Part shown: positions 9,896-63,594 of the stretch, in pieces | Layout: every line of letters begins with the position of its first letter | How positions within the stretch are numbered: the stretch's first letter is position 1 | Made by a program: the position numbers and the translations under genes | Origin: Gracilinanus agilis | Taxonomy: Eukaryota | Direction: 5' to 3' | Assembly (NCBI RefSeq): GCF_016433145.1 | Contig: NC_058131.1 | Coordinates: 601,478,868 to 601,542,867 of the forward strand | Length of the DNA: 64,000 nucleotides | The notes under the pieces: generated by a model | Database searches by the model: none | Seen by the model: the letters and a program-made list of their open reading frames with translations, nothing else | Told to the model about the DNA's origin: nothing

Positions 9896-10027
9896 ATGAA
9901 AAGTGATTTAGTAAAAGCCTTTGCTCCTTGCCAAGCACCGGGCTAAATACTAAAGGTACAGACAGATACATGTCATTTTAGTCCTGTCGTCTTGGATGTC
10001 ATCAGGTTTCTATTCTTACTTCTTTAG

Positions 10028-10160
10028 TGAGGTGCTGGCAGAGGAGTCGGTGGTTTGTCTCCAAAAAGCCCTGAACCGTCTTCGAGAAATCTGGGAATTG
10101 ATAGGCATTCCGGAGGACCAGAGGCTCCAGAGGACGGAGGTCGTCAAGAAGCACATAAAG
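10028..10160 (+). CDS. PRC1: PRC1 exon 2 (dimerisation domain)
   Basis: tttag|TGAGGTG...ATAAAG|gtgagt, 133 nt, EVLAEES...KKHIK. Confidence 0.96.
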
Positions 10161-10242
10161 GTGAGTGACTGGTTTTAGTTTGTGATGGATGGGCATCTGG
10201 GTGGGGGGCCGTGGAGGAGAGGGGACCAGGGGATCCTCTGAA

Positions 10243-10304
<62 letters not shown>

Positions 10305-25414: not shown

Positions 25415-26047
25415 TTATAAATATATACTTAAAGTGTGGCTGCCAGGAATCAACATTTCAGATTGATTCCGTAATTAAATTAGACCCAAGTCAGGACTGG
25501 GTTTAAGGTAGTTTACAATTAGGAAAGTAAAGGGTAGGGAAATAGAGTGAGGGAGAGGCTAGTCCAGGCCTGCAGAGGCCTGGACGGAGAGAGAAGGTTA
25601 GAAGGCTAAATGAGGCTACATAGTCACAAGGCCTAGCAACCAGATAGGCAAGAGCCTACTCAAAGGTAGAGTTTGGAAATGCCAAGGTAGGCCAAGGAAG
25701 TCAGCCTAACTTACCCACGTGACCATTCAGAGTAGAAGCTGCCTGAGGTGTCAGCTGAGATCCTTCAGTGCCAAGTTCAAAGCTGGAACTCCCCTTGCAG
25801 GAAGTAACCAACATACTTGGTGTCTCTTGTCACTTCCTGTGGGTCCACCTCTAATTCAAGTGGACAAATGGCAGCCTCTACACTGATTTGGACTGCCCAA
25901 AGGGCAGTCTCTTGTTCTTGATTTGTTACTGTCATGTGTGGGTAACTCATTTCCCCTCCCCACTAAGGGAGGTGGGGATGACCTCATCTCTCTGCCTAGG
26001 GTAAGTAGAGTTTGACTATAAATGGGCTAGAGCTAATTCTAGTTACA
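25415..26047 (-). mobile_element. Putative solo LTR (ERV) between the convergent PRC1 and RCCD1 3' ends
   Basis: About 630-bp non-genic block whose minus strand starts TGTAAC; short internal hairpins (25562-25585, 25891-25909); TSD not resolved. Confidence 0.5.
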
Positions 26048-26860
26048 CACTTTGGGGACTCGTAGCCTACTTACTATCTAAAGGAGGTTCACAAGTTGAA
26101 GGCTTTCTGGCTTGACATTTTTTTCTAGTAGTGCCAAAAATGTAGCACATTATGCAGTAAAAAATGATCCATTAAGTTGGGAGGATTATAGGAAAGCAAA
26201 TCAGTTCAACAAAAGATTTGAAACATTTCTGAAGTCAGTATCAAGGTTTTCCTTCTGAAAAGTACTCTTCTCCCAACCCCTAAATATAGCTATACTTCCC
26301 AAGCCTAAGTAAATGTTAGCATTCTGTTCCTAATCTAGGAGCCAAAAAGTCTTTAGCATGAATTTGGTAGTCTTGACAGTTAGACTGAAAACTGACCTTG
26401 TGTTGATGCATAATAAACTTATCTGACCACAAATAGGAATGTGATGGAAGATTTGCAAGAATCCCCGGAGTTGACTTTCTTTTCCCACGAACACTTCCTA
26501 CAACCTTTTTCCATTTCAAAATGGCCAAATGTTTGGGATTTCTTCCCAAACATCTTGGATTCTTCCTGCACTGAGTCTTGTCTCAGGCTTTACTCTGCTG
26601 GGAAATGCCCTTGGGGGACAGGTAGGCAGTGCCAGCCCCACTTTACAACAATGTAAAGGTTTTAAAAGCTGGCCTCTAACTGAAGAGAGGTGCATCACCT
26701 TAGGTGTAGATTATGAATATTTTTTGTCTTCAGCAAAACCCCTTAAACCAAGATATGGGGAGGGTTGTACAGAACTGTAACAGCTTTGACCCTAAAGTTA
26801 AAAATATGTACCTGCCATTTGATTTCAAAACTGCCAAATATAGGAGGTACTAGAAGACAT

Positions 26861-33100: not shown

Positions 33101-33955
33101 AAGTGGGGAGAAGGATAAAGGAGAGGAGGAGGAGGAGAAGGCATAGAGGAACCGGGGAAGGGGTTGAAGGAAAAGAAAAGGAAGGGAAAGAGGAGGGGCA
33201 GGGGANNNNNNNNNNNNNNNNNNNNNNNNNNNNNNNNNNNNNNNNNNNNNNNNNNNNNNNNNNNNNNNNNNNNNNNNNNNNNNNNNNNNNNNNNNNNNNN
33301 NNNNNNNNNNNNNNNNNNNNNNNNNNNNNNNNNNNNNNNNNNNNNNNNNNNNNNNNNNNNNNNNNNNNNNNNNNNNNNNNNNNNNNNNNNNNNNNNNNNN
33401 NNNNNNNNNNNNNNNNNNNNNNNNNNNNNNNNNNNNNNNNNNNNNNNNNNNNNNNNNNNNNNNNNNNNNNNNNNNNNNNNNNNNNNNNNNNNNNNNNNNN
33501 NNNNNNNNNNNNNNNNNNNNNNNNNNNNNNNNNNNNNNNNNNNNNNNNNNNNNNNNNNNNNNNNNNNNNNNNNNNNNNNNNNNNAGGAAGAGGGGAGGGA
33601 GGAGGATGGTGGGGAGGAAAGGAGGAAGAAGGGGAAGAAGGAGGAGGCCAGGAGAAAGAGGAGGGGGAGGAGGAGGAAGAGAAGAAGGTGGGGGAAGGGA
33701 GGAGGAGAGCAGGCGCCCCGCCCCCCTCCTTCCGCGCTCACGTGTCAAGAAGCCGCTGAAGCTCCAGCTCGGCCGCACTTGGAGGACTTCGATGACCGCA
33801 GCCTGGGCCTTTTCCGGGTCTCTCTCTCCGCTGCCCTCCAGCACCAGCGGCTCGGGCCCGTATAAACTGCTCCGCGGCCCCAGCTCCGAGCCCAGAGCCT
33901 GCCCGAAACCGCGAAACCCAAACCCGAACCAACCTGGCCGCGGCGGGCTCCCCAT
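26993..33955 (-). CDS. RCCD1: RCC1 domain-containing protein 1, 7 coding exons, 408 aa
   Basis: Minus-strand GT-AG exons 33955-33742, 31665-31254, 31151-31030, 28421-28326, 28116-27946, 27595-27566, 27174-26993; total 1227 nt, phases consistent. N-terminus [19 protein letters not shown]; RCC1 repeats ([61 protein letters not shown]). Confidence 0.96.
27566..27595 (-). CDS. RCCD1: RCCD1 coding exon 6 (30 nt)
   Basis: tgtag|GAGATGGGGAACTCTACACTTGGGGCTGGG|gtaagt, [10 protein letters not shown]. Confidence 0.93.
27946..28116 (-). CDS. RCCD1: RCCD1 coding exon 5
   Basis: cccag|CTTC...ACCC|gtaag, 171 nt, [10 protein letters not shown]...[11 protein letters not shown]. Confidence 0.94.
28326..28421 (-). 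CDS. RCCD1: RCCD1 coding exon 4
   Basis: ggcag|AGGCT...GGTG|gtaag, 96 nt, [17 protein letters not shown]. Confidence 0.94.
28515..30420 (-). mobile_element. LINE-2 fragment in an RCCD1 intron
   Basis: L2 3' end signature at about 28530; minus ORF 29230-29616 resembles L2 RT C-terminus ([11 protein letters not shown]...[16 protein letters not shown]). Confidence 0.8.
31030..31151 (-). CDS. RCCD1: RCCD1 coding exon 3
   Basis: ctcag|ACAC...AGCG|gtgag, 122 nt, [16 protein letters not shown]. Confidence 0.95.
31254..31665 (-). CDS. RCCD1: RCCD1 coding exon 2
   Basis: tttccag|GGGAT...GGCAG|gtaag, 412 nt. Confidence 0.95.
32100..32300 (-). mobile_element. SINE1_Mdo-type SINE
   Basis: Antisense copy with T-tail. 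Confidence 0.8.
32946..33710. repeat. Polypurine (G/A-rich) low-complexity tract in an RCCD1 intron, containing an assembly gap
   Basis: Almost pure A/G on the + strand on both sides of the N run. Confidence 0.9.
33206..33584. other. Assembly gap (379 N)
   Basis: N run. Confidence 0.99.
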
Positions 33956-35120: not shown

Positions 35121-35371
35121 NNNNNNNNNNNNNNNNNNNNNNNNNNNNNNNNNNNNNNNNNNNNNNNNNNNNNNNNNNNNNNNNNNNNNNNNNNNNNNNN
35201 NNNNNNNNNNNNNNNNNNNNNNNNNNNNNNNNNNNNNNNNNNNNNNNNNNNNNNNNNNNNNNNNNNNNNNNNNNNNNNNNNNNNNNNNNNNNNNNNNNNN
35301 NNNNNNNNNNNNNNNNNNNNNNNNNNNNNNNNNNNNNNNNNNNNNNNNNNNNNNNNNNNNNNNNNNNNNNN
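35121..35371. other. Assembly gap (251 N)
   Basis: N run. Confidence 0.99.
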
Positions 35372-43600: not shown

Positions 43601-46600
43601 AAGGACAATTCCAAATTACTTTCCAGAATTGTTGGGCCAAACCACAGATCTAATTCCAACAAAGACACCAACAGTGTATTAAAGAACCTGTTGTTCCATA
43701 GCATCTCTAGCGTTATTTCTAGCTTTTGTCATTGTTTGCCCATTTGCTGGGTGTGAAGTGAAACCTCAGAGTCTTCTTGTGCCTTTCTCTTATTAGTGAT
43801 TTGGAACAATCTTTCAAATGGCTGTTGGTATTTATATTTCTTTTGAGAACTGTTGGTTCACATCCTTTGACCACTTACCTGTTTAAGAATATTACTTGGC
43901 TGTATATATTCAGATTATTTCCATGGGCAAGTCATATACTCTCTCTAAGCCTCAGTTACCCCTTCTATTAAATAAGGAAAACAATGCCTGCCATACTCTA
44001 CCTCAAGGGGTCATTATTAGAATCAGATGAGATAATCTTTAAGCGAAATGCTTTGTAAACTTTAAGAACCTCTCTTATCGTTGGCTATTATTCTGGATAA
44101 AGGGGAGTTTACAATAAGGGAATTTCCTTTTCTTCCCTTTATCAACTCATTTTTATTGTGGGACCTTTCTGGAGGCTAAATTGTGAGTTACCCCTGTGAT
44201 CAGAATGACTTAATTTCCATGAATTGATTGATGTGGTGCTTTTTTAAGTCCTTATAAATGTTGTCTCCAGTTTAGACAATGTTGCTTGATTTGGCAGGTC
44301 CATTTTTTTTTTCTTTTTGCTGCTTAGTGAAATCTTGGCACGGGACTTTGTGGGCTGTTTCTTCAAAGCTTTGGATCGACTTCAAGAAATCTGGGACTTG
44401 ATTGGGATTCCAGAGAACCAAAGGCTTCAGAGGTTTGAAAATGTCACACAGCATGTCCAAGTGAGTGGAGCCACAATCTTCTTTGTGGCCTCAAGGCTCT
44501 GAATTCACATCTGCTGACAATGGGCACATATCTCCAATTTGGCCTTTGTGAAATTGTTAACATTAAGACATCATGGAGGGGAGCAGTGAGGTGACTCATT
44601 GGCAGCTAGGTGGCTCAGCCAGGCCTAGAGATGTAGGTCCTAGGTTCAAATGTGGCCTCAGACACTCCTAGCTGTGTGACCCTGGGCAACTTACTAAACC
44701 CCCCTTGCCCATCCTTTACTGTTCTTCTGCCTTGGAACCAAAACACAGTATTGATTCTAAGGTGGAAGGTGAGGGTTAAAAAAAAAAGATGTCATGTGCT
44801 TTGTCTGTTGTAGGGGTCATCTGTTCTTGAAATACTATGAAATTGGTTTTTTCCCTTTTTTCTTTTAAACCCCTCCCCACTTTAGTGATCCATGGACTGA
44901 TTCTATTTTGCTTTAGAAACTCTTAGACATGATGATTGAAGAGGAAGAAAGCCTGAAAGAAAGACTACTAAAAAGAATTGAGTCATATCGAGAAGAACTG
45001 AACATTCTATTCAAAGAGTTAAAATTGGAACCATTTCTGGTAAATCTTATACTAAATGCAGCCTCTTGGAATTTAGTTACCAGCACTTGATGCAGAGGAC
45101 CAAGACCAGGCCCCCAAAATCTAAAGTCATAGCCCTGTCAGATGTATTTTCTGAGATTCAGGTCTACTTTTCCATCTGCTTGCTAGACATAACCACTGGG
45201 AGCAAAACCAGGACTGTAGGGCTATGGCAAAGAGGATGACACTTCTACACAGCCATTGATCTTCGTTACAGGGAAGGGACAATTGCCCTGTACCACCACT
45301 CACTTGGTGTTCCCCGGCCTGCCAGCTACATTTTCTCTTTCCCTGGGAGCACCACTGGGGAGGTAAGAGGAAGATACAAAATCTTAATTCCAAGAGAGGC
45401 CTCTGAGAAATGGTTCCCCTTCTTTTGGAGGTCTGGTTAGATACTTTCCCTTTCCCTTATTTTTCTAGAAAGCAAGCCTCCTTCCAACAATGCCCCTCTT
45501 TGGTCCTTTAAGCCCTCCCTGGTGAAGAGTTCTAAAATGATCATTGGGTATTGTGTTGGTAGTATTGTAGTCAGTTTTATATTGCAGTAAGTGGTTGGCT
45601 CCAGTGGCCTTGTGTCTACTGCACATGTCATTCCCCACTCTTCTGCCCAGGGACTGGGCCTACATCTCCTGCCACTTAGCCAGCGTCAACTACTCTATTC
45701 CTGTGCTGGGACAGGACAAGTGCTGTGATGGGGACCTGAGCTCTTCTGCCCTATGCTAGGGCAGAGTATTACTATAGGCTTGCATCTTTGGGACCTCCCA
45801 TCTCTGGGCCTGCCTCTCAACCCACTGAACTACCTAACTACCTCCAGGTACAGTTCTTTAGGAATTTAGGAGTATACTCACTTTAGTCTTTCCTTGCCAA
45901 TGGAAAGTTATTTTTTTAATATCCCAGAAGTGGAAGGCACCTCACAGTAAGCACATAAGGTCTCTAGAAGGATCTAGAGATGCAGCTAATTTATTCAATA
46001 GTTAGAGGACTTGACTTGAAGTCAAGAAGAACTGAATCTCTAAACGATCACTCTAATGCAAATATCAATAATATAGAAATAGGTTTTGATCAATGACACA
46101 CGTAAAACCCAGTGGAATTGAGCATTGGCTACAGGAGGGGAGGGAAAAACATGAATCATGTAACCATGGAAAAATTTTCTTAATCAATTAAATAAAATTT
46201 AAAAAAAAGAGTCACTTAATATCTTAAAAAAAAAAAAAAAAGAACTGAATCAAAATCATGCCTCAAATCCTAGCTGTGTGACCCTGGGCAAAACTGCCTT
46301 AATGTCTATCTACATATTTTTTCAACTATAAAATAGAGATAATACCTACCTGCCAATGTTGTTATGAAGGTAAAATGAGATGTTTGTAAAGTGCTCTGCA
46401 AACTTAACTTAAAATGTTATAGAAATATTAGCTATTATTATTATTATTATTATTACTATTATTATTGTCACCAAAATCATCAGCAGAAATATTGCTAGTC
46501 TGGGTTTACCTTCCTCTCAGAGCATTCACTGCCCATTCTCCTGTTTCAAAAAGCTTTTTAGGAGTCCTGCATGACTGTGCCAATTATTCTTGACTTTACC

Positions 46601-49600
46601 TGCCTAAGGTCAGAATCCCTGGTAGTTTTAGGTTCAATATTAGAACAAAATTTAGCCAGAGAAATTTACTTAACCGTATCAGAAGGATGTCCAGCAGAGA
46701 TAGGCATTAAGATCATCACCAGTTTGATTCAACTGAGAGAATGTAGGATTTAAAACAATGTTCAATACTCAAATCAGTGATTCCCAAAGTGGGCGCCACC
46801 GCCCCCTGGTGGGTGCTGCAGTGATCCAGGGAGGTGATGATGGCCACAGGTGCATTTGGGGGTGGTGAATAACTGTAAGGGGGCAGTGATAGTATGTGTC
46901 AGGGGGCGCTAAGTAATATTTTTTCTGGAAAGGGGGTAAAGTTTGGGAACCACTGCTCCAAGTATTATATTTTATTAAGTTTATTAATAATCTCTTGAAA
47001 TAAAGGAATAAAAAGGAAATAGAAGTATAAAAACATAATTAACCAAAATAAAACCACATGAATAAATTCTCTCACTTCTCCCAAAAAGCCTGCTTCAGCC
47101 AGCCCCCCCCATCACAGGAAGAGAGAGTGAGAGGCAGGACTACACAAAACTTATATTCTCCCAATGGCAGCATGTAATGTGAGAAGGAAAGTGGGGTGCT
47201 GGGAATTGTAGTTCTGGGGTTCAGATTCCAATTATACAAGAAACTTTCTTAGATTCTTTCTGGGGCTATTTCTGATTACCAGGAAGTGATGACACATTAG
47301 TCCCCTGAGCCAACAAAGTGGTACAGATGGCTGGAGTACCTTCTTAGAGAAAACTTTTAAAAGAAAAATTAGCCCAACTTACATGGAAGCAGATATTGAT
47401 CCAGCCATAGCTACCTTTTGCAAGAGGTTTTTCCTGGCTCCCAACCAGCTATTCCACCCTTCCCCTCTAAAATTACCTTTTATCTCCTTGTTACCTATCT
47501 CGATCTACCTATTTATATATATGTTGCCTTCCCTATTAGAATGGAAGATTCTTGAGAGTAGAGTCTGTTTTTGCTTTTTCTTTGTTTCCTCAGTGCTTAG
47601 CATAATGTCTGGCACATAGTAAGTTCTTAGTAAATAATTACTGATTGCTTCATATTCTTATGGTATAGTCAGTCAGGGGTGTGCCAATCAGCTGGGAAAC
47701 ATGAAGTTTTTAGCTTGGAAAAAAAGATCAAAACTGGGGTTCGATTGAGCTGTTTTTAAAAAAACAAAAAAAAATAAGATGAGGAATAACTGGGAAGAAT
47801 AAAAGGATATGGCAAAGATATAAATAACTTGTTGGATAAAGATTAAGCCAGAAAAACAAAGGTGTTTTTTTTTTTAATAACCCTTACCTTCTAAGTATCA
47901 ATACTAAATATTGGTTCCAAGGCAGAAGAGCAGTAAGGACTGGGCAATTGAAGTTAAGTGATTTACCAACGGTCACACAGCTAGGAAGTGTCTGAAGCCA
48001 AATTTGAACCCAGGACCTCCCATTTCTAACCACTGAGCTACCTAACTGCCCCCCCCAAAGCCAGAGGTTTTAAATTACTATCATCCCTAAAGGAGATCAC
48101 TTATAAACTAAACGAATCACCCTAGAAACTAACCAAAACCAAGCTTCTTGACCTTGGCTAGTTTCACTTAAAACTAGTAGAATTACAGATGTTACAAAAA
48201 CATTCTATGATGCTCTGATATATCCACATTGTTTATTTTTTAAAATAAGGAACCTCACAGGATTTTCGCCCCACATCTGGTCCCTGTTGTTGAGGACACA
48301 AATGAGTCGAATTGAGGGTTTCTGTCACCTGCCCTTCCTTTATGTACTCTGACATAGTTGTTTTTAGTGCTTTAGCTCTGACACATTGCTATTTGGCACA
48401 GGAAGGAGAGGACACTACTATCTTGAAGCTAGAGAAGTCTCTTCGAACACAGGTAGAAGAGATGAAAAGACAGAAAGAAGAAAGGCTACAAGAACAGAAA
48501 CGACTCCAAGAACAAGATCAAAAATTGTGTGAGATTCTTTGTATGCTACCATACAGCCTTGACAACAATTCGGTACCCAGCATGGAGGAGCTGAACCAGT
48601 TCAGAAATCACCTGGAAGCTCTGGCAGAAACCAAGGTAGAGTTGATTGTTGACCTTCTTCCTGTGTGTTTCATTCACTTCTGGGGTGCCATATGACTGAC
48701 CTCTTTGGTTTTACAGGCCAGCCGATGGGAGGTGTTTATCAGCACAAAGAAGCAGATTATACTCTGTATGAAAGATTTGGATCATATCCCAGAAACAGAT
48801 TTTGAGAGAGATGTGGTATGTGAGGCTGAAGAGAACTTTTGTCTGTCATCAGAGAACATGACAGCCCTGAAGAATCTACTTTTACAGGTATGCTGATCCA
48901 AGTTCAAGTAATTATTAACTTGATTATAGAATTTTGGAAGGTGACTGCGGCCAGAGCCTGGAGAATTTTTGCTTTGTTCCTGGACGTTGGGTTTATTGGA
49001 TGTAGCCTAGTAGTTTCGCGATAACTTTAAAACCTCCAGTTTTCTTTCTTTTCTTGCCATATGCAAAAGTAGCAAGCTTTTCATCAAGATAGTAACAATA
49101 ATGTAGCTAAATAAAAACCAAGATAATAATTCCCATCACTATTGTTCTTTAAGGTTCGCAAATTGATTTTCTCACAAAAACCCTGTGCACATCCAAAGTT
49201 GGTGTAAATGCTGATACATAGGAATAGTCAATGTTAGAGGAGACATAACCATTTTGAAAAAAAATTTGGAAAAAAAAATTTGACCAATGTTTATTATACC
49301 CTTTAGCCCAGAGATACTGCTGCTAGGTATATATTCCAAGGAGGTCAATGAATTTTTACAAAGGGCTCCATATCTACCAATTTATTTTTCTTTCTTTTTT
49401 TTAAATTTTTTAAACCCTAATATCTTATATATATATATCCTTCTATATTAATTTTATTTGTTATAGGGCTAGGCAATGGGGGTTAAGTGACTTGCCCAGG
49501 GTCACACAGCTAGGAAGTGTCTGAGGCCAGATTTGAACCTAGGACTTCCCATCTCTAGGCCTGGCTCTCAATCCACTGAGCCATCTAGCTGCCCCCCTAC

Positions 49601-52600
49601 CAATTTATTTTTAGTAGAACTTTTTGATTTTTTACATTTATTTTTAAAAAATTGAATTCCAGGGGAGTAACTAGAGATGAGAGGTCCTGGGTTCAAAGGT
49701 GACCTCAGATACTTCCTTGCTGTGTGATCCTGGACAAGTCACTAAATCCCAACTGTTTAGCCCTTACCACTCTTCTGCCTTGGAACTAATACTTACTATT
49801 GATCTTAAGACTAAAGATAAGGGTTAAAAAAAATCGAGTTCCAAATTCTTTTCCTCCCTCCCATCCCTCCCCAACCCATTGAGAAGGAAAACAATTTGAT
49901 ATCAGTTATAGATGTGAAGTCATGCAAAACATATTTCCATTTTAGCCATGTTAGCAAGAACTTTCTGCAATAGTAGAGAACTAGAAAGAAAGTAGATAGC
50001 AATGGGGAATAGCTAAATAGATTGTTATAAAAATATAATTGAATACATTGTAATACATGATGAATAGAAACAATTTAATAAGAATTTAGAGAATCATGGG
50101 AAGATTTACATCAGTGATTCCCAAAGTGGGCGCCACTGCCCCCTGGTGGATGCTGCAGCGATCCAGGGAAGCAGTGATGGCCACAGGTGCATTTATCTTT
50201 CCTATTCATTGCTATTGAAATTTTTAAAAAAAATTAATTTCCAGGGGGCTAAGTAATATTTTTTCTGGAAAGGGGGCGGTAGGCCAAAAAAGTTTGGGAA
50301 CCACTGATTTATATGAACTATTGATGCAAAGTAAAGTAAGGAGAACCAAGAAAACCATATCCAGGGACTGCAGTCATGTAAGTGGGAAGAATAAAAACAA
50401 TACTGAAAGCAAAGTAAGTATTGTATGAAGCTCCTTCCCAAAGAAGAGATGAGAAAATGCACTTCCCTTTCTTCTTTGCAGAGGTGAGGGACTGAAGGTG
50501 TGGAGCATTACATATCCTGTCAAGCCATTAATAGGATCATAGCAGCATAGATCTAGAGGTGGAAGGAACATCAAAAGCCATCTGGTTCAAGCTTTTCATT
50601 TTACAGAGAATAAATTGGGTTGGGTCTATACCCAAAGTCACTTAGGCAATAAGGAGAAGAGTTGGGATTTCAGTTCTTTCATTTCAAGTTCAGAATACTT
50701 TTTAACATACCCCTTTTCATTTAGTTTTGTAGAAATTCTTTTTCCTCCTTTTCTTTTTATATATTTTTTGTTATACTGTTGTGTTTGGAGTTCGATCTTA
50801 CTCCAAAAGAATTTCTCACTTGAGCTCTGTTCATCTGAGGCAAAACTTTTATTGGGGTTATTGGGGAGAAGTGGCTTGAGCTGGTGGAAGTGGTGCCCAT
50901 TGCTTCTTTTCAGGAGTGGAGTGGCCTTTCCCAGGAGAAGTGGGAGATAGAATCTTTATAGAGAAAAAGTCAAGGGCCCTCTGCCCCTGCCCTTAGGCTA
51001 GGCTTGAGGAGATGGAGGGGTGCCCTTGGGTAGCTCTACACAGGTGCAAACTAGTGGAATTTCCTCTGATGGTTGTTCTTTGGAGAGAGCCAGGTGTCCC
51101 CATAAGTACCCCTGGCTCTTAGACAAGGGCTCAGACTGATATCATTTGGTGCTCAGGGGTCCCAGCTCCCATAAGCACCCTTGACCTTGGATATATGCAA
51201 GTTCCTGGATTGGGGTCTAGTCTGATGTCATTTGATACCTGACTCAGGGGTCCCAGCCCCATCAGTAGGAAATGGTTTTCCAGGTAGGGAATAGAAGAAG
51301 GATATACTAAAAAAATGATATATGACAAAAGTATCAATAAGTTAAAAATTCTCATTTGATGCAAACCACTTTTTTAGCTGTAAGTCTAAATTCATGAAAT
51401 TTGTTTGATTCGTAATATGTAAACTATATGTGTGGGGTTGAAATTTTTTATATTCAATTATTTTATTCTAAACTTCACAAAAGACCAAGAGAATGGAAAT
51501 TTTCATATACAAAACAGAACAAAAAAGAGGATCATATGTAACACCATTAATCTCTATTATCATAAATTCAAGATGTTACTTTCAAAACTGTCTTGCATGT
51601 TTGTCTTTTTCTGAATTTCCTTCTGTTTTCTTCTTCACATTTAAAAAATGCTTCAGTGATCTTCTTTTTCCTTGTTTCCTTTTTATTTTTTTTTTGAGGT
51701 CATATGATTACTGGTTCTCTTTTGTCCCTCTTCCCCCAAGGATAAAAAGAAAAACACAGTTCTTGGAACAGATAGGCATAGTCCAGGAAAACAAATTCAC
51801 ACATTTTCCATATTCAAAAAATCTATTTCATTTTGGACTTTGAGCACATCACTTCTGGGACAATATTTCATCATAAATGTCTGGAGTCATGACAAACCAT
51901 TTTATTGATGTATTCTTAATAAGTTCTTAATAAGATGGGTAGCATGTTTCTTTATCATAAGTTCTTTGGACTTTTACCTTGTAAAAATAGTACTAAGGGG
52001 CAGCTGGGTAGCTGAGTGGATTGAGAGTCAGGCCTAGAGACTGGAGGTCCTAGGTTCAAATCTGGCCTCAGACACTTCCCAGCTGTGTGACCCTGGGCAA
52101 GTCACTTGACCCCCATTGCCCACCCTTACCACTCTTCCACCTAGGAGCCCAATATACAGAAGTTAAGGGTTAAAAAAATTTTTTTTAAATAGTACTAGAT
52201 GCTTTCGATGATTACTAATTTTACTACTAGTCTGTTCCCTTACCCTATAGCCCCACAGGTGACATGATAGCAGGCTTTTTGTCTGAAAACCTTATGAAAA
52301 CCCAGGACTGAGCATTCATTTATCCTACTGCTTTTCCAGAGTATCATCAAGAATGCTGCTTAATGGGATGGTGGAGTTGGGGAGGCTATACATGATTATA
52401 TTGGTGCTATTCTTTGTGTATACTGTCCTATGTCATATATGATTATAAGTATCAGTAAATCATTCTAACTCACCCTATTCTTGCTGAGTGCCATTCACTG
52501 AAATTTTGACCTAAATTTGCATGACGTGAATTCATTTGTGACTTGTTCAGTTTCTTTTTCTGAAACTGGGCTTAAACAATTTTTCTATTTCTTATTCTAC

Positions 52601-55600
52601 TAATATGAGTATTTATTGCAAACATTCATATATTTCAATTAAACTGTCAAGTTTTATTGACATATAATTGGACAAAATCCCTTCTAATAATTTTCTTTAG
52701 TTCTTAATTTGTTGCTAATTTTTATTTTTCATTTTTTTGATACTGGAAAATTGGTTTTCCTTTTTATTCTTTTTTAACTTAGCCAATAGTTCATTTTAAC
52801 TTTTTCCATATAAAATAACTTCTAGTTTTACTTATCAGGTCAGTATTTTTTCTTTCTTTCAAATTTTTAATCTTATATTTGATTTTCATAATTTCTACTT
52901 TGTTGTTTAGTTGCAATTACATTTTTTATTGGTATAATTTTTTTTACTTGTATGCCCAATCATTGATCTGTTCTTTCCCTTTTTCGTTGATGAAAATGTG
53001 ATAGACACAGAAATTTTTTCCTTAGGATTACTTTGGCTGAATCTAAAAGTTTTGATGTCTCATTGCTGTCATTTTTTAAAATGAAATTCTCTATTATTTA
53101 TGTGATTTCTCTGACCCACCAATTCTTTAAGATTACATTATTTTGGCTTTAAGTAATTCTTAATTCTTTCTTCAAAAGCCCTTTAGTGAATATAATTTTA
53201 TTGCATTGTGGTTGGTAAATAATGTATTCAGTATTTTTGCTTCCCTGTATTTGTTTTTAAGGTTTTTATGTCCTTTGAATATTGTGTTTGTAAAGGAGCC
53301 ACAGAGTACTTAGAAATATGTATGGTCCTTTCTGTTCCCATTCAGTAATCACTAGAGCTCTATCATGGGTTACTTTTTCTAAAATTTTGTTCAGTTCCTT
53401 AATATTTATGGTTTATTTTTGGTTAGAGATGTTTAGGTCTCAAAGGAATTCCTCAAGATCCTCACTGTTAGAGTTTTGCTGTCTAGTTCTTCCTATAAAT
53501 TGATTAACTTTTCTAAAGTTGAAGCATTTAGCTTCCATATCATTTGTTACAAATATTAAGCATTGATGTTAGTTATCTTTAGTACATTTAGGCATAATAT
53601 GGTGTTTACATTATTTTACTCAATACTTTAAAAAAACCCTGTTGTCTTGTCTGAGATTATGATTGCCACCTTTCATTTTTTTTTAGTTCTAAAGCATAAT
53701 ACATTTTTCCCTAGACATTATTTAACCATGTTGGGATATTTCTGTTTCAAGTGTATCTCTTTTAACTAATATTCTTGGATTCTCCTATCCTCCATTTTAT
53801 GAGAGTTCACTAGTTCTTGATTGTTATCATGGTTATGATTGTTAACTGTATTTCACTCCATCCTGTTTTCTTACACTTTTTCTCTCTCCTACCCCTCTTT
53901 ATTAAGAAGATGGTAGTGAGAGATAAGAATGTTCAGCATGAACAAACTATACTTGTTATAATCTACTTTTATTCTGTTGTTGTTCTTCTCTTCCCCTCAC
54001 CTGGTCCTCAATCATAGGCTCTGATCTTTTTTTTTCCTTTTATCCCCCTTCAGATCCATTCTCTAGAGTTTTTTTTGTTTGTTTGTTTCTTTTTTACATA
54101 GGACTTATTCCTCCCTGAATCTATCCTTATTCTTTAATTCCTATCTCCTATTGGGCATTCAACTCACCTTTGTCCAATTTATTTGTAGCCTGTTCTCCCA
54201 TCCCTTTTCCTCCTCATTTGCATAGTTTAAAAAATATAGAGAAGGGAGCAGATGAAAATTCAGTAGGGGATTCAGACAGGCAAGAACCATCTTGTACTCT
54301 CATGTTAAATGTAATACATACTTTTAAAAAATAATCTATATGTAGTAGAGATACAAAATTCCATATGTATAATTACTCTTTTACTGTTCTTTATTCATGG
54401 AAATAGCCATGTTTGTCAAAATCATCTTAAGAAAGAAAATTTCTTTTTCAAACACATACTGGAATTTTTCCCAGGCACCAGTCAACTTACTAATATTTTG
54501 AAGACTTTTTTTTTGGAGGGTAAACTGAGAAATCTCCTGATTTCCAATTTCATAATATTTCTCCAGTTCACTGATTTTCAGAGATCAGGAATGATGAATT
54601 AGCTGTTACATTCACTAGTTTTTTCAGATTGTATTGTAGTTTGTCTGAGCCTCCTTACTTAAAAATATAATAAACCCTTATCTTCTGTCTTAGAATCAAT
54701 ACTAGTATCATTTCCAAGGTGGATGGGAGGTAAGGACTAGGAAATTGGGGTAAGCGACTTGACTTTAAACTTCCTGAAGGCAGCTAGAGATTCTCTTAGC
54801 ATGACCTCAATTATATTCATTTTCAATTCCCTGTCAACCACATATTTTTACTGGCTCTTGCTAGGTGCATTGGATCTTTGGATAAGAGTACATCATTCCT
54901 TTCATTTAAGCTTTGGTCCAGAAATCCTAATTCTATTCTCAGACTTCTTCAACAGCTCAGTTCCAAAATTCACCTGTTCTAAAGCTTTTTCTTCCATTAG
55001 TAGCAATGATGAAACTCTCCTAAGGCTTTCATTTCCTTGCATAGTCCTTCATAATCACTGCCATTCTTCTCGAGATGATTTGTCCTTATGAACTGCCAGA
55101 AGAAGACAATGGTAGTAATGCTAGTTTATATTTATATATTTTAATTTAAAATTAATAGAGCACTTAAGAAATTTCCTGAGAAAACCAAGGAAGAGGTTAA
55201 GTGACTTCCCCAGAGTCACAAAGCTAATGTTGGAGGTAGAATTTGAACCCAAATCTTTGTGATTCTAATACATTAACCACAGCCACAATGCTTCTATGTA
55301 GTATGTTCAATATACCTGTCAGGTTGACATATCTTGGTGTATCCCTCAGTAGGGAGTCCCACTAACCACAATTCTGCTTTTCTTCTTCCTCTGACTAGTA
55401 ATGAATTCCCCTTCTGCAATTCTACATCATTATTCCTTTAGAACAGAACATGAGAAGCCATTCCTTCTTGAGAGGGTCCAGCTCCTTTCTCCTTTCTCCT
55501 TTCCCCAGAGATGCTGAACTTTTTACTGCTTTGCCAATGGTTATCTCCCCATAAAACAACTAGTTTTCTTAATTAAAAAAAATCATACTCAATCATATAT

Positions 55601-58600
55601 TTTCAAAATATTCCAACAGAAAATAGATGATGAAATTTATCTTTTTCCCTCACTGTGTCACATTTTTCCATCTTTCAGCATCCACACATAGGTTAAGCCT
55701 CCCTTATTTCTCTTCCCATGTTTATTCTCTTTTGTCATTAATTAATTAATTAATCAGTTTGGTTCTGTGTTTATTTATTTATAAAACCCTTATCTTCTGA
55801 CTTAGGATCAATACTGTGGATTAGTTCCGAGACAGAAGAGGGGTAAGGGCTATGCAGTGGGGGTTAAGTGACTTGCCCAGGGTCACACAGCTGGGAAGTA
55901 TCTGAGCCCAGATTTGAATCTAGGACCTCCCATCTCTAGGTCTGGTTCTCAACCCACTGAGCCACTCAGCTGCACCCCAACTTTTATTCTCTTTTGAAGC
56001 ACATTTTTCCATAAATATCTCATTCATCCTGACAATTTACAATATAAGCTCCTTGAGAATAGGGATTGTTTTATTCTTTGCTTTTGAATTATTCCTTACC
56101 TATAGTTGGTGCTCAAAAACTGCTTGCTGACTAAATGGAGAGAGGTATTCTGTTAGCCCTTTTACCCTGTGCATATGTACGTGGCACTGACAGATAAACA
56201 CAAATGTGTTTTCTTCAGGTTATTACGCAAAATCTTCTGCGTTCTTCAAACCTATGGGAAGGGGGAACCCCAGCTGTCTTTTGTTCATTTAATGAACTCA
56301 TGATGAATGGTTGTTTGCCTCTACCCATTCCTAACCTATGAGCTCCTAAATAAACTTTATCTATAGAACTCTTTTTCACCAGCTTGCTCAGCTGTCTTGA
56401 ATCCTGGTTAATATATTTCTGTTAAAGCCCTAATACAAATAGAAGCAGGACTGAGCTATTGTCAAAAAGGCCTTACACAGGAATTCCATTTCTAGGCAAT
56501 TTTCGCCTCTTTGCTATTCCAGACCATGTTGCCTGTACTCCGACATCTTCCTCACCCCACTTCCCACTGGAATCTGGTCTCTCTGATGCTGAGTTTTTGC
56601 CACATCTTTCCTGCAATCACGGAGTTATCAGACCTTCCATCCATATCCAAATCATGCTTCTAGGCATGGATTTCTCCCCCTTCTACCTCCTTTTAAGGGA
56701 TCATCTTCCCACATTAGAATGTAAGCATTTTGAGGGCAGTGACTGTCTTGCTTGTATTTGTATCCCCAGTACTTGGCACAGCACCTGGTGCATAGTAGGC
56801 ACTTTTTTTTTCATTAATTCATTCTTTTTTAAAAAGTCACTTAGATTTCAGACATCCATTCTTGTCCTCTACCCTGTTGCTTCAACATCTTCAGTTATTT
56901 CTCTTTAGAAATGAGGTACTTTGCTTTGATTAAGAACTCATTTTCTTTGTTGCAGCTAGAAATGGAAAAAGCTGAGAATGAAGCTGTGTGCGAAGGGCTA
57001 CGCTCTCAAATCTGTAAACTCTGGGACTCGTTACAGGTGTCTACCCAGGAGAGAGAAGCCCTGGCCGGTTTTATGACTGGGTCAAAGGACAAGATCAGAA
57101 AAGCGGTAAGAAATTATAATAGGCCAGAGATGGGCAACTTTTCTATCCTGGTATGTCAAAGTTTTGATTCTTTTCATTAGTGCATGGCGGAAAGAAGAGA
57201 ATGCTAGTTGTTAGCTAGCCACTCTGACTTGTGACACATTTTTTTGCACTGGGAAATGGGGTGCCATGCCAGGCATTATCTTTAGTGTATGTATCATATA
57301 TTGTCAACTCCTGTAACAGAAAAGACTGTTTTTCCATCACTTTTTGACTAGAAGACCACAATTCTATTTCCATGGCTTTCTAACTTTTGGTTACTCTTTT
57401 CTGAAAGGTACTTCAGAGCTTCCACTTTGTGAAAGACTTAGAGAACTAATAACCCTCTTTTATAGATTTACTCTTGGAAACCATCTTGAAATAGACTTTT
57501 GAGTCAATGAGTATTTTGAATTATGATCTAACTTTTTATTGCCAGTATTTTTTTTATTTCATGTTTATTTTATTGCCATTCTTTTTTTCCAATTATGTAA
57601 AGATATTATACCAATTACATGTAATAATAATTTTCCATATAAGTTTTCTGAGATTATAAGATCCAAATTGTCTGTCTCCTTCCCTTCCTTCCCCATCCCC
57701 ATAGATAGTAAGCAATTTGATTTGGGTTATGCATGTATTATCATGGAAAACGTATTTCCATATTGTTCATTGTTGTAAGAGAATAGTGATATAAAACCAA
57801 AAACTCAAATAAACTAAAGGAAAAAACTGGTTGGTTTGATCTGCATTCCAACTCCAACTTTTTTTTCTCAAGGCAGATAGTATTCTTTGTCATAATTTCT
57901 TCAGAATTGTCCCAGGTCATTGTGTTACTGAGAGTAGCTAAGTCTTTCATAGTTGATCATCGTACAATATTGCTCTTACTGCATACAGTGATCTCCTGGT
58001 TCTGCTTATTTCATTCTGCATCAGTTTATGTAGGTCTTTCCAGTTCTTTCTGAAATCATCCTGTTCATCATTTCTTACTGCACAATAATATTCCATCCCC
58101 ATCATATACCACAATTGTTCAGCCATTCCATTGATGGACATCCCTTTAATTTCCAGTTCTTTGTCACCTCAAAAAGAGCTGCTATAAATATTTTTTTTAC
58201 AAGTAGGTCCTCTCCCCGCTTTTTCAAAGATCTCTTTGTGATATAAAACCTAGTTGTGGTATTTCTGAATTAAAGTGTATGCATTGGTTTTTAGCCCTTT
58301 GGGCATAGCTCCAAACTGTTCTCCAGAATGGTTGGATCAGTTCACAACTCCAACAGCAATGCATTAGTGTCCCAATTTTGCCACATCCCCACCAACATTT
58401 ATCACTTTCCTTTATAGTCATACTAGCCAATCTGATAGATGTGAGGTGGTACCTCAGAGTTGTTTTAATTTGCATTTCTCTAATCAAGAGTGATTTAGAA
58501 CACATTTTAATATGATTATTGAGAGCTTTGATTTCTTCATCTGAAAACTGCTTACTCACATCCTTTAGCCATTTGTCATTTGGGGAATTATTGCCAATAT

Positions 58601-59994
58601 TCTTGACCGTTAGTTGAAACCCTGAAAACTTGGTAGATGACCAAATGAAATCAAACTCTAATCTGAGGCTTGACTAAACAGAAAAATGGCATAAAACTAA
58701 TGTTAAGATTGTTCTAGAGAAAAAGGAGAGGGGCACTAAGTAGGCACAGAGGACAGAGTGCCAGAAGACTTGAGTTCAAATTTGTCCTCAGACACATGTC
58801 CTACCTGTGTGACTCTGGGCAACCCCTCACTGCCTAGCCCTTGCTGCTCTTCTACCTTAAAATTGATACTAAGATAGAAAGAGGGTTATTTTTTTTAAAG
58901 TTACTTTTTGGACACTTTTCCCTTTTGTAGTTACAGTCAGAAGTGGATCGGTTGGAGGAACTGAAGATTCAGAACATGAAGAAAGTAATTGAAGCCATCA
59001 GGGCGGAGCTGGTACTATATTGGGAAAAATGCTTTTACAGCCAGGAACAGAAGGAAGCCTTTACCTATTACTATGACAGTTAGTATGGAGACTCTCAATA
59101 TAGACTTGCCTGCTTACTACTGAATTTCTACAAGACAGGTTTCCTGACAAGAAGAAAATAAACTTGAAAAAGAATTAATGTCAGATTATCTTTTTTCTGG
59201 CTACTCAGTATACATTAGTTTTGTTGTACAGATGACAGTTTTGCAAGGCTTCTGGAAGTGATCTGCAGTTTGTCTTGTTTGAAGCATTTCTTCTTCAGAG
59301 AGCTCTCAGGAGTAGGAAACTTTTCCCTCTTGAATCTCTTTAATATAGCTGACCACCTGGGATGAAGCTCTTAGAATACACTCAAGCATCTATGCTTGTC
59401 AAGTATCTGAATTCCTACTGTGCTGAATTTTTGAGTCAGGGGATGCAAAAGAAGTTTAGAAAGCTTGGGTCCTACCCTTAGGAAGCTTATATTTTCATTT
59501 TCATTTCATATTTTCATTCAATTATAATATTTTGTAACTTCGTAAGAGATGGTTGACATAAAAATGATAGATATTAGGAAACACCCAGTCACTAGAAGGC
59601 AGTGTGTAATTATGTAAAAAGTAATGATACAATTAAATGCTAGATAAACAGTAAATAAGATGAAATTGCAAGGGGAAACTGGAACTAGGAGGTAGAATTT
59701 GACCTGGCCTTAAAGGATGAGTAATATTTCAATAGACCAAAAGGGTAGGATAGATACAGTATGAGTAAAGGCATAGAGGTTAGAATGAACATAGCATTTT
59801 CTACTTAGGGAGGGATTAGAGAGAAAGGCAAGGCTGTGTCATGTTCTTAACTTTTGTGCCTTAGACCCCTTTGGCAATCTGAAATCTATGGACCCCTAGT
59901 CAGAAAAATGTTTTAAGTGTGTAAAATAAAACACATAGGATTACAAAGGAAATCAATTGTATTTAAATCTGTGTATATTTAAATACAATTTTAT

Positions 59995-60051
<57 letters not shown>

Positions 60052-63000
60052 AAGTTTATAGGTTCCAGGTTAAGAATTTTTGGTCCTAGAAGGATGAATG
60101 AAAGGATATGGATATTACTGTGTGGGTGGAGAACTATCAAAAATTCTTGAATCATATGATGATTATAGTGTTTTATTAAGATTAAGTTTGAGGGGACAGC
60201 TGGGTAGCTCAGTGGATTGAGATCCAGGTCTAGAGATGGGAGGTCTTAGGTTCAAATTTGATCTCAGATACTTCCTAGCTGTGTGACCCTGGGCAAGTCA
60301 CTTAACCCCCATTGCCTAGCCCTTACCGCTCTTCTGCCTTGGAACCAATACACAGTATTGATTCTAAGGTGAAAGGTGTAACATGGAAAATGGCAGGGTG
60401 GAATTCCTGCAAGATACAGGGTCAAGCCTAAACCCAGAATTCCAGGGGACCCCCCCTGGAGAACTCTGGGGGAGGGGCTTGACCCTGTATCTTGCAGGAA
60501 TTCCACCCTACCATTTTCCATGTTACAAAGGTAAGGGTTAAAAAAAAAAAAAGATTAATTCAGGGCCAGATTGTGCACTGTCTTAAGCACTGGGGAAATA
60601 AAGAAAGACAAAAAAGCAGTCTTTGCCCTCAAAGAGTTCATAGCCGATGGAAGACACAACATGCAAGCATTATGTATAAGCAAGATCTATACAGGACAAA
60701 TTGGAGGTCATCTCAGGGAAGGCTAGTGCATTAAGAGGAAAGGCTTCTCGTAGAAGGCGAGGTTTTAGTTGAGATCCAAAAGAAACCAGAACCACGAGAT
60801 AGAGATGAGGAGTGAGAGACAGCCAGTAAAAATGCCCAGTGTCCGGAGATGGAGTATCTTGAGCGAGGGTCCGCAAGGAGAACAGTGTCACTGGATCATA
60901 GATTACATGGAGGAGAATGAGGTGCAATAAAACTGGAAAGGTAGGTAGGAGCCAGATCCGGAAGGGTTTTCAAAGCCAAACAGCAGCTGTTATATTTGAT
61001 CCCGAAGGTCATTGTGGCTTTATTGAATTTTCGTGAATAGGTAGACTTGCTCTTTAGGAAGATCACTTGGTTACTTGAGTGGAGGATAGACTGTAGTGGG
61101 GAAAAGACTTGAGATGGGAGCACTAGAAGCCTATTGCAGTAATCTAGGTGGGAGGGGATGAGGGCTTCCCGTAGGGTATTGGCAGTGCCAGAGGTGGGAG
61201 TGTACATGAGAGATGTTGTGAAGGTAGAATTGATAAGATTTGGTGGCATATGGGATATTGGGAGATGAGAGAGTGATGAGTCATGGGCTGGGCAACTGCG
61301 AGGCTGGTGGCAACCTGGAATCATCCTTCCAGTTACCAGGAGGAGACATGGGCATGATAGTAGACATGAGGGAAGCACAGAGTAAATAAGGAGAGATTAA
61401 AGATTGGTGAGAAAGTAGGGATGAGAGAGGCTGGATAAGATAGGATGGAACAGATCAAGAGAGGCTATGATTATCCAGAGGCTGGGACAAGAAAAAGACT
61501 GTAGATGATTCAGTATATTTGGGGAAATGGGGGATTTTGCTATGTTGGGAACAGGAAAGACTAGCAACTAGGCTACATAAGTTTAGAAGAATTTTAAAAT
61601 TTGACTCCATTATTACCCTCACACAGAGGACTACACAGAGGTCTTGCTCCAGCTCCATGATGCAGAAATTGTGCAGTTGAAACAATACTATGAGATGCAC
61701 AAAGAAATCTTTGAAGGTGTTCAGAAGTGGCAAGAGAACTGGAGGCTTTTCTTGGAATTTGAGGTACTTTTTCAAAGGAAGGGAGGTAGGGAAAGGCCAG
61801 AAAAGTGTAACAAATTGCCCTGAACATAATTGCTTACCCCCATTCCCTTGGTGCAACAAGATTTCTGAAACCTGGCTTTGCCCTCTGAGTCTTCTCATTA
61901 CCACAAGCCATGTCTTTCGGACTTCTCATAAACCTGCTTCAGGATCAGTTCTAGTTGGGAATACTTTGGATTCCTTTTACTTAGTTGTTAGTGAAGGGAA
62001 GGAATATCAATAATCCTTCTTGGTCCTAATTTCTGGCTCCAGGAGGGTATGGGTTTTATGGCATTAAAGGACTTTCAAGAACTAAATCTTCCTTCTGTGC
62101 TTGAATTTATTAGTTAAATAGTAGCTCTAATTAAAGTATATTGTCTCCACAGAGAAAAGCTTCAGATCCAAGTCGATTTATGAACCGTGGTGGAAAACTC
62201 TTGAAGGAAGAAAAGCAACGAGCCAAGCTCCAAAAAACACTCTCTAAGGTAGATCCTGCTTTTTGGAGTGCTCCTCATGTTTTGCTTGCAAGATACTTCA
62301 TCTTAAAAAATATATCTTTGGTAAAAAACAGAACCAGGAAAACAACACATCAATTACAACAATGTAAAATAGAGAGAACAAAATCTTGAAGCTGAATGCT
62401 GCTTAATGATAATGACCAAAATTGACCTGGAAGAAAAAATAAGAAAAATGTCCCTTAGCATCCCTCTCTTCTTTGTAGAGGTGGAGTCTTTGGGTGCAGA
62501 AGATATCATATGCTCTCATTCTCTGTTGATGTCTTGCTTAGTTTTACTGAACTGCTTTTATTCCCCCCCTCATTTTATTCTTTGTTATAAGGGGTGACTC
62601 AGTGGAGAGAGAAGAATGAGATACATTCATAAATAAAGGTGATTAAAAATGTTATTCTTTTAAATTTTCTGCCAAAGAATGAGTCCTCCTATGTTAATTC
62701 CTCTGAGCAGGTAAAATACTACCTGATACCTCTCTCAGGAAGGCCATCCTTAGTAGAGTTGTCCATTGGGTAACAAGGGATGGAACTTTCTCACTGTTGT
62801 CTATTAATTAATAATTCTTATGAGGACCTCCTGCCATTGAGACTTGGGTTTTGCTGAAAGCCATAGCATCAAGAATGTCCAAAGGAGAACATTTTTAGAA
62901 GGAATGCCTGTGCTCTATTTCCCTTTCCTTCAACAGCAAGTGTCTTCTCAATAAGCCAGGGTTTTGTTTCCTGATGATCAGTTTTATACATATTCTGTCT

Positions 63001-63594
63001 TAATCTCATGTTTTGCTTCAAGTCATCAACATCCTGAAGTAGCACAATCGGCCTCAAATGAAAGAAGTCACCTCTGAGAACAGCAAGATTAATGAGAGTG
63101 ATAGCTAATTATTGATAGTAGGCTTTCCTTTTTTTAATTACTTCAGTTGGAAGAGGAGTTGAAAGCACAGACTGAAATATGGGAAAAGGAACATTCCAAG
63201 GCATTTGTGGTATATGGCCAGAAATTCACAGAATATATATCGGAACAGTGGGAGATGTTTCATTTGAAGAAAGAGAAAGAAAAGCAGGATCGAGTAAGTA
63301 AAAAACAAACAGGAAAAACTACCGTGAGCTCTTTGAGCAGCATATCTCTGCTAAGTTGTACAGATGGGGAGAGCACCCTTTCCTTCCATTTTGTGAGTGC
63401 TATAAACTATGAACTAGCTTTCCACCTCTGCCTTCCTACTCCCATCATGCTTTAATATTGTGCTTCCATTTCCATGACAATTCTCACAGCAGCTAAAGAA
63501 AAACCAGCAAACAGGAGCAGAGATGTTATATAGCAGCAGATTCAAAACACCCAGCAAGAAACAAGGACCTAACAGATCAGGCAAAGCTCACAAG
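37605..63594 (+). CDS. PRC1-like: Second, diverged PRC1-family gene (PRC1-like paralog), exons 1-11; continues beyond the window
   Basis: GCCGCC-ATG AGG AGA AG|gtgat at 37605-37615, then 44328-44460, 44917-45039, 48402-48635, 48717-48887, 56956-57105, 58931-59078, 61627-61763, 62153-62248, 63147-63293, 63490-63594. All GT-AG, same exon sizes as copy 1 except exon 11 (105 vs 111 nt). No stop or frameshift in 485 codons; about 69% aa identity to copy 1 by hand count. Confidence 0.93.
39656..39856 (+). mobile_element. hAT MITE with CAGTGATGGC(A/G)AACCT-type TIR (OposCharlie1/Myotis-hAT-like)
   Basis: CAGTGATGGCAAACCT...AGGTTCACCAACATGG; TSD ccctatgc/ccctataa; family name from memory. Confidence 0.65.
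40468..40528. repeat. Tandem duplication, period 33 bp
   Basis: cttcagaaaggtctatatagactagttt occurs twice. Confidence 0.9.
42480..43900 (-). mobile_element. Degraded LINE-1 3' fragments
   Basis: Similar to the 57.5-58.6 kb L1 (cattttcatatgcc..., ccatttgctgggtgtgaagtgaaacctcagagt); boundaries approximate. Confidence 0.6.
44328..44460 (+). CDS. PRC1-like: PRC1-like exon 2
   Basis: cttag|TGAAATC...CAA|gtgagt, EILARDFVGCFFKALDRLQEIWDLIGIPENQRLQRFENVTQHVQ. Confidence 0.94.
44601..44787 (+). mobile_element. SINE1_Mdo-type SINE in PRC1-like intron 2
   Basis: Consensus-like copy with A-tail. Confidence 0.8.
44917..45039 (+). CDS. PRC1-like: PRC1-like exon 3
   Basis: tttag|AAA...CTG|gtaaat, KLLDMMIEEEESLKERLLKRIE (missed by the ORF track). 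Confidence 0.94.
46039..46239 (+). mobile_element. 5'-truncated L1 3' end with double poly(A) and 12-bp TSD
   Basis: TSD AAGAACTGAATC at 46027-38 and 46240-51; L1-type tail aatcaattaaataaaatttaaaaa. Confidence 0.75.
46775..46955 (-). mobile_element. hAT/Charlie-type MITE
   Basis: cagtgattcccaaag...gtttgggaaccactg TIRs; degenerate TSD. Confidence 0.8.
48402..48635 (+). CDS. PRC1-like: PRC1-like exon 4
   Basis: acag|GAA...AAG|gtagag, 234 nt. Confidence 0.94.
48717..48887 (+). CDS. PRC1-like: PRC1-like exon 5
   Basis: acag|GCC...CAG|gtatgc, 171 nt. Confidence 0.94.
49390..49596 (-). mobile_element. SINE1_Mdo-type SINE with 16-bp TSD
   Basis: TSD CTACCAATTTATTTTT at 49374-89 and 49597-612. 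Confidence 0.85.
50112..50306 (-). mobile_element. hAT/Charlie-type MITE with 8-bp TSD
   Basis: Same TIRs as above; TSD atttacat/atttatat. Confidence 0.85.
50770..51430 (-). mobile_element. Possible LTR in PRC1-like intron 5
   Basis: GC-richer block with internal repeated motif (ctgatatcatttg..ctcaggggtcccagc) and minus-strand AATAAA near 50850; ends unclear. Confidence 0.35.
51977..52185 (+). mobile_element. Young SINE1_Mdo variant
   Basis: Near-consensus copy; TSD AAATAGTACTA. Confidence 0.88.
52540..53800 (-). mobile_element. Degraded LINE-1 fragment(s)
   Basis: T-rich antisense L1-like sequence in PRC1-like intron 5. Confidence 0.6.
55780..55978 (-). mobile_element. SINE1_Mdo-type SINE
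   Basis: Full-length antisense copy. Confidence 0.8.
56956..57105 (+). CDS. PRC1-like: PRC1-like exon 6
   Basis: gcag|CTA...GCG|gtaaga, 150 nt. Confidence 0.94.
57530..58580 (-). mobile_element. LINE-1 3' fragment (ORF2 C-terminus + 3'UTR)
   Basis: Minus ORF 58224-58559 CSKSLLIREMQIKTTLRYHLT...CWWGCGKIGTLMHC is the L1 ORF2 C-terminus. Confidence 0.9.
58931..59078 (+). CDS. PRC1-like: PRC1-like exon 7
   Basis: gtag|TTA...GACA|gttagt, 148 nt, LQSEVDRLEELKIQNMKKVIEAIRAEL (missed by the ORF track). Confidence 0.93.
60001..60048. repeat. (TA)n microsatellite, about 24 units
   Basis: Direct reading. Confidence 0.95.
60191..60552 (+). mobile_element. SINE1_Mdo-type SINE hosting the palindromic insertion
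   Basis: ggggacagctgggtagctcagtgg...attctaaggtgaaagg[insert]taagggttaaaaaa. Confidence 0.85.
60377..60527. mobile_element. 151-bp palindromic MITE/foldback element, TGT...ACA ends, 52-bp TIRs, 4-bp TSD (AAGG)
   Basis: 60377-60428 is the reverse complement of 60476-60527 with 1 mismatch; AAGG at 60373-76 and 60528-31; interrupts a SINE. Confidence 0.85.
60555..61340 (-). mobile_element. LINE-2 fragment
   Basis: Minus ORF 60896-61378 contains HLDYCNRLL...LQSILHS...LALKTLPDLAPTYLS, typical of the L2 ORF2 end. Confidence 0.8.
61627..61763 (+). CDS. PRC1-like: PRC1-like exon 8
   Basis: acag|AGGAC...GAG|gtactt, 137 nt. Confidence 0.94.
62153..62248 (+). CDS. PRC1-like: PRC1-like exon 9
   Basis: acag|AGA...AAG|gtagat, RKASDPSRFMNRGGKLLKEEKQRAKLQKTLSK. 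Confidence 0.95.
63147..63293 (+). CDS. PRC1-like: PRC1-like exon 10
   Basis: tcag|TTG...CGA|gtaagt, 147 nt. Confidence 0.94.
63490..63594 (+). CDS. PRC1-like: PRC1-like exon 11 (105 nt)
   Basis: acag|CAG...AAG|gtaaaa, QLKKNQQTGAEMLYSSRFKTPSKKQGPNRSGKAHK. Confidence 0.92.

Follow-up and report, generated by a model that had tools for sequence, protein, structure and literature searches.

The window, a 64-kb stretch of the Gracilinanus agilis genome, contains two tandem PRC1-like genes on the forward strand, at ~10000–18400 and ~44300–63300. An open reading frame in one exon of these genes matches the Pfam family MAP65_ASE1 (E = 2.6e-19). The matched exons of the two genes are ~58–85% identical in protein, those of the second gene being set further apart by longer introns. 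The assembly has two gaps here (33206–33584 and 35121–35371; 630 N), the first within a CpG-rich stretch near 33–34 kb. From the exon matches, one intron of the second gene extends from approximately 59080 to 61626 (+ strand), and it contains a SINE into which a short palindromic element has been inserted.

The host SINE (60190–60552, + strand) is of the tRNA type, carries a poly(A) and is split in its 3′ tail. Compared with the other copies in the window, it deviates from the majority at 12 of 181 columns (6.6%), placing it among the least diverged there. Judged by this SINE, whose family we take to be SINE1_MD, the host looks like a didelphid marsupial. SINE_1 MD is described as occurring in American marsupials (PMC8056902). 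Excision of 155 bp gives back exactly the tail that 11 further copies of this SINE in the window possess. As this removal restores the tail, the element is younger than the SINE, which agrees with the original prediction.

The insertion is a 151-bp palindrome (60377–60527) with TGT…ACA ends. The 52-bp left arm, which starts with TGTAA (60377–60428, +), and the right arm, an inverted copy of the left that ends in TTACA (60476–60527, −), are complementary at 51 of 52 positions, reproducing the count first reported; the lone mismatch is 60394/60510. Between them lies a GC-rich imperfect hairpin of 47 nt (60429–60475, +). This center is merely near-palindromic, and the element matches its own reverse complement at 85.7% with gaps. 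Folded as DNA, the element forms a single hairpin of −75.8 kcal/mol (z = −16.35; equaled by 0 of 200 shuffles), so the earlier description of a whole-element hairpin with a near-palindromic center holds. The RNA fold reaches −127.7 kcal/mol (z = −18.64; again 0 of 200). The center region (60420–60482) folds by itself (z = −3.43; 1 of 200 shuffles), and the one-armed 101 nt as a whole fold weakly (z = −1.90; 9 of 200).

Within the window we found no second copy of the element, and no other segment of 100–1000 bp with TGTRA…TYACA ends and an exact 4–6-bp duplication around it. The 151 bp contain no AATAAA, ATTAAA or TATA-like hexamer. An Rfam search of 59500–61500 gave four matches at E up to 1, all under the gathering scores; for microRNA families, MIR5048 scored 34.7 against a threshold of 160 bits and mir-1296 scored 29 against 100. 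An exact 29-nt arm pattern had 0 matches in metagenome contigs and 0 in viral contigs.

Ends and target-site duplication

AAGG lies immediately to the left of the element (60373–60376) and, in the comparison at offset 155, again to its right (60528–60531). The full repeat at this offset is 6 bp (60372–60377 = 60527–60532), so that this copy alone is compatible with a duplication of 4, 5 or 6 bp. The 4-bp duplication originally proposed is therefore right as to AAGG on both sides, but its length does not follow from this copy alone; the other copies favor a boundary at TGT. In a public sequencing run, X24, contigs with long mixed flanks (agreement 0.39–0.41) meet the element at 60377 (70 contigs) and 60376 (37 contigs), and the six best rows of X24 loose ends (117 further rows exist) include none at 60378. 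Since 107 contigs break at 60376–60377, the element begins with TGT, and given this boundary the duplication of this copy is 4 bp. The same breaks, with 60378 missing from the best rows, disfavor a 6-bp duplication with GT…AC ends. Among the X24 contigs we saw no other copy with both flanks, and the 4-bp duplication thus comes from this copy only.

A miniature element of the hAT or Tc1/mariner type was also considered and rejected: it needs an 8-bp or a TA duplication, and at offset 155 no repeat exceeds 6 bp, nor is the duplicated sequence TA.

A further 28 contigs, breaking at 60386, have a different terminus in which the initial TGTAA is kept; two or more end subtypes thus exist in the family. 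At least 37 of the 107 contigs carry G directly before TGT (P = 1e-4 for an assumed G share of 19%); among the others the majority letter is C. Where retroviruses make 4-bp duplications, they are described as disfavoring A before the end and favoring a central pyrimidine–purine step (PMC4422553). In the pooled flanks, the majority letters of the 60377 group show such a step; it is missing from those of the 60376 group, which would suit a symmetric site of 5 bp equally well. As the step appears in the 60377 group only, the flanks lend partial support to a 4-bp retroviral site.

Relatives in public sequencing runs

The sequencing-run search listed 24 runs, and contigs of four of these were placed on 60352–60590. 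X24 contains 0.81 of the words of 60100–60800. From this run 2787 contigs were placed, SINE-tail contigs included (663 at ≥99%, 1127 at 95–99%, 825 at 90–95% and 172 below). The evidence for a family comes from this single run, and the window itself may derive from it. Summed word depth in X24 reached up to 680,000 on the left arm, compared with 26–33 for the eight long contigs listed. Summed depth is not a copy number, and the copy estimates take every 31-mer in a high-copy repeat to yield a separate contig; under this depth model, crude arithmetic gives ~880–900 arms and ~610–710 centers, crudely 600–900 copies overall, with a floor of about 370–730. The element is multicopy in X24, and the single-copy foldback that had been raised as an alternative is not upheld.

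The arm-to-center ratio, 1.24–1.47, is under the 2 expected if all copies had long inverted repeats at both ends. The depths suggest a one-armed majority and roughly 170–290 two-armed copies, a number that depends on the k-mer model and shrinks if centers are under-counted. Twenty X24 contigs exit at 60477 into common sequence (agreement 0.63). Four of the eight X24 pieces listed (records 9, 12, 14 and 15) match arm and center and then continue for another 107, 286, 51 and 63 letters in which no right arm follows, departing within 60468–60478; another three end at 60468–60477 and are uninformative on the right arm. From these exits, the part common to the longer one-armed relatives is ~100 bp (60377–60477, +), and the exit point is both the base of the central hairpin and the start of the right arm of the palindrome.

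Two-armed copies were also found. Record 16 spans the center and right arm by 44 and 52 letters and continues into 2087 letters of other flank. Four single-contig joints link the left to the right arm over a missing center (sides of 20, 26, 29 and 44, of which only 44 is strong), and in a further joint 18 letters lie between the arms. The strong joint, 60429>60482, and record 16 are contigs at single-copy depth. The shared 5′ part, the turn at the hairpin base and more than one two-armed copy are seen directly in the contigs. The palindrome thus consists of ~100 bp from the start of a longer, multicopy element that begins with TGTAA, followed by an inverted copy of the first 52 bp of that element. 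The original prediction had set a foldback against a mobile family. This contrast falls away, since the contigs suggest both: the palindrome would be a foldback of a longer one-armed element, and a recurring one. To the first observation, the present analysis adds that the element is multicopy, that its boundary is at TGT, and that there is a one-armed parent whose turn point is at the hairpin.

Relative to the common alleles, this copy has at least four differences in the 47 nt of the center (60430–60431, 60450 and 60471) and ~1 in the 104 nt of the arms. The differences private to this copy are concentrated around the base of the inner hairpin (60430–60431 and 60471–60477), which they weaken; pairing is better in the common alleles. 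Perfect palindromes may collapse where interrupted ones persist.

Single X24 contigs at single-copy depth (60377>60523 and 60376>60528) join the SINE tail across the element with both AAGG kept, and one of the two joints retains a few terminal bases. Such contigs may represent alleles that were collapsed or excised, or else paralogous SINEs bearing small insertions; we treated them as paralogous SINEs. No joint skipping exactly 155 bp, as an empty allele would, was listed in X24, where the right flank of this locus (60576–60590) was without cover and no contig spanned the locus. Of 69 words sampled from the region, X24 is without ~13 (0.19). Loss of the junction and center words of this copy would give 0.21, and about four flank differences would explain the 0.19 equally.

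In X1 (organism A; 879 million letters; 125 contigs placed) and X6 (organism B; 12 contigs placed), the SINE tail was covered and 60376–60519 was not; no X19 contig was placed on 60352–60590. As lack of cover in X1 and X6 is not proof of absence and these are possibly RNA runs, lineage specificity is at present a lead.

Origin of the palindrome

The window also contains a solo-LTR-like element (25393–26049, −) of 657 bp with TG…TTACA ends and AAAG on both sides, a 4-bp duplication if its start is 26049. The original prediction had placed an LTR at 26047 beginning with TGTAAC. That beginning is real, on the minus strand only, but the start is probably 26049. Its suggested link to the palindrome did not survive comparison: the local score is 20–21, against a mean of 17.6 and a maximum of 27 in 200 shuffles, and thus there is no detectable homology. 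The first 120 nt of the LTR-like element contain no notable hairpin (z = −0.80).

Our best reading, for which we judge the chances to be about even, is that the palindrome is a snapback of the U3 end of a young ERV1-like LTR that was inserted by a retroviral integrase. Of the enzymes put forward originally, an ERV integrase acting on inverted att-like ends fits best; the TGT termini and an integrase-type footprint are supported. The parent is known only from contig loose ends, in which we saw neither a TATA box nor a poly(A) signal, 3′ end, primer-binding site or internal ERV; calling it an LTR is our inference. An ERV1-like parent is suggested by the abundance of ERV LTRs in didelphids (PMC8390783, PMC8056902), the like footprint of the window's LTR-like element, the 4-bp duplications that gammaretroviruses are described as mostly producing (PMC4422553) and the lack of detected Ginger2 transposons in vertebrates.

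In this snapback model, the left arm would be the U3/att end of the parent, consistent with the boundary of other copies at 60376–60377, and the central hairpin would be the fold-back primer. During reverse transcription, plus-strand DNA from the U3 end would stall past the GC-rich hairpin, fold back and prime the copying of its own first 52 nt. Second-strand synthesis would then yield a short duplex with two U3 att ends, which integrase would insert with a 4-bp stagger; alternatively, two such ends might be inserted together and then joined by repair. With its turn point fixed by the hairpin, the same product would recur, and later loop deletions and mismatches would give rise to the shorter and interrupted copies. 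In yeast, single-stranded DNA with short inverted homology is described as folding back to produce inverted insertions (10.1101/2024.03.07.583931). Against the snapback model stands the excess of private changes in the center over the arms, which recurrent fresh snapback does not predict. Also counting against it, a duplex of only ~150 bp would have to bend sharply for a single intasome to capture its two ends.

The palindrome might instead have arisen in place and never have moved, which we consider unlikely though not negligibly so. A solo LTR would have been inserted first, with the AAGG duplication, and later, at the hairpin, a replication fork would have changed templates, making a backward copy of the left end before rejoining at the LTR's own TTACA end. 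Such an event explains the intact duplication without a mini-substrate, and micro-homology between LTR ends (TGTAA/TTACA) is present in the LTR-like element of the window. It also accords with the differing centers among two-armed joints and with the total of only about six two-armed contigs directly seen; the arm excess of 1.24–1.47, however, points to a number of two-armed copies well above what rare chromosomal events should produce. Agreement of the TGTNR termini, 4-bp duplication and 52-bp inverted repeats with the description of Ginger elements (repeats of 40–270 bp; PMC2836005) raises a further, unlikely reading, a miniature element of a Ginger-like or unknown TG…CA DNA transposon. This would be a doubled-end derivative of a longer non-autonomous element, moved by cut-and-paste by a transposase or a domesticated GIN protein. 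GIN1 is reported from opossum and GIN2 from marsupials (PMC2836005, PMC3424704), and a short right-hand repeat of the parent would escape contig placement. But the target is AAGG, neither CCGG/CCGT nor RTATAY. Ginger2 predicts an A before TGT, which is missing from the pooled flanks; the best rows include no group ending in GG (60375); and at least half of the center-bearing copies appear one-armed. Moreover, in 2012 data no Ginger2 transposon was detected in vertebrates (PMC3575427), and the catalytic triad of GIN2 is described as doubtful (PMC3424704). Since the AAGG site and the pooled flanks match neither Ginger preference, the Ginger-like candidate put forward originally fits poorly.

We think it improbable that the palindrome is itself a variant LTR of a non-autonomous ERV-like retroelement, its copies being solo LTRs left by recombination. 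TG…CA ends, a 4-bp duplication and many near-identical copies are typical of solo LTRs, but 151 bp free of AATAAA, ATTAAA and TATA-like hexamers contrast with TATA and AATAAA as conserved LTR features (PMC2664473), and the terminal loose ends are mixed flanks with no common primer-site or polypurine sequence among the best rows. Exact duplication, exact restoration of the SINE, the arm mismatch, the private center alleles and the two-armed X24 contigs at single-copy depth (record 16; joint 60429>60482, side 44) make it very improbable that an assembly or library artifact, a fold-back chimera of a normal repeat, produced the palindrome, even with gaps in the window (630 N), no X24 contig spanning the locus and ~13 of 69 sampled words missing from X24.

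A literature search, with most subscription journals and Repbase Reports outside its scope, returned no description of such an element or integrated product; the parent, and perhaps the palindrome, may already be catalogued in Dfam or Repbase. Mammalian MITEs are thought to derive from DNA transposons. If fold-back DNAs with two U3 ends were integrated by the hundred, as the snapback model would have it, they would represent a second route to MITE-like palindromes, undescribed in a mammal, and germ-line evidence of an integrase accepting ~150-bp same-ended substrates. Repeat pipelines would then misfile retroviral palindromes as DNA transposons or unknowns. Intronic copies, if transcribed, would be ready-made double-stranded RNA hairpins that might give rise to small RNAs or provide sites for editing. 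A bolder reading, which we consider rather unlikely, is that palindromes from retroviral ends form a new class of mammalian miniature elements, with its own lineage of hundreds of copies. Several families of them would then be present in this genome, and an ERV integrase or else an unrecognized Ginger-like enzyme, recently active in an opossum germ line, would have spread them. Should a Ginger-like enzyme be responsible, it would be the first of its kind with recent activity in a mammal.

Comparison with known systems

The element works like an integrase product, yet it is not a solo LTR. It shares TG…CA termini, multicopy status and, at this copy and given the TGT boundary, a 4-bp duplication with ERV1- or gammaretrovirus-like solo LTRs, and its footprint is like that of the 657-bp LTR-like element in the window. 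Unlike them, it is only 151 bp, carries the same end twice in inverted orientation and is without a TATA box, poly(A) signal or R-U5. The palindromic mammalian MITEs MADE1 and MER53 are short and near-fully palindromic, with one end doubled, and would give a hairpin RNA if transcribed; the same is true here. MADE1 and MER53 have TA or 8-bp duplications and DNA-transposon parents, whereas the element has TG…CA ends, a 4-bp duplication and probably a retroviral parent.

Ginger1, Ginger2 and Tdd resemble the element in their TGTNR termini (here TGTAA), 4-bp duplications and inverted repeats in the range of 40–270 bp (here 52 bp). The targets described are CCGG/CCGT for Ginger1 and RTATAY for Ginger2 (PMC2836005). 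The element differs from Ginger1 in its AAGG duplication and from Ginger2 and Tdd, with RTATAY, in its AAAGGT. Unlike Ginger elements, most relatives here appear one-armed and we saw no transposase; in mammals, only domesticated Ginger derivatives have been reported. Finally, fold-back templated inverted insertions at DNA breaks resemble the element in that the inversion is described as primed by short internal inverted homology in single-stranded DNA. Those insertions are captured by end joining (10.1101/2024.03.07.583931), whereas the palindrome has precise ends and an integrase-type duplication.
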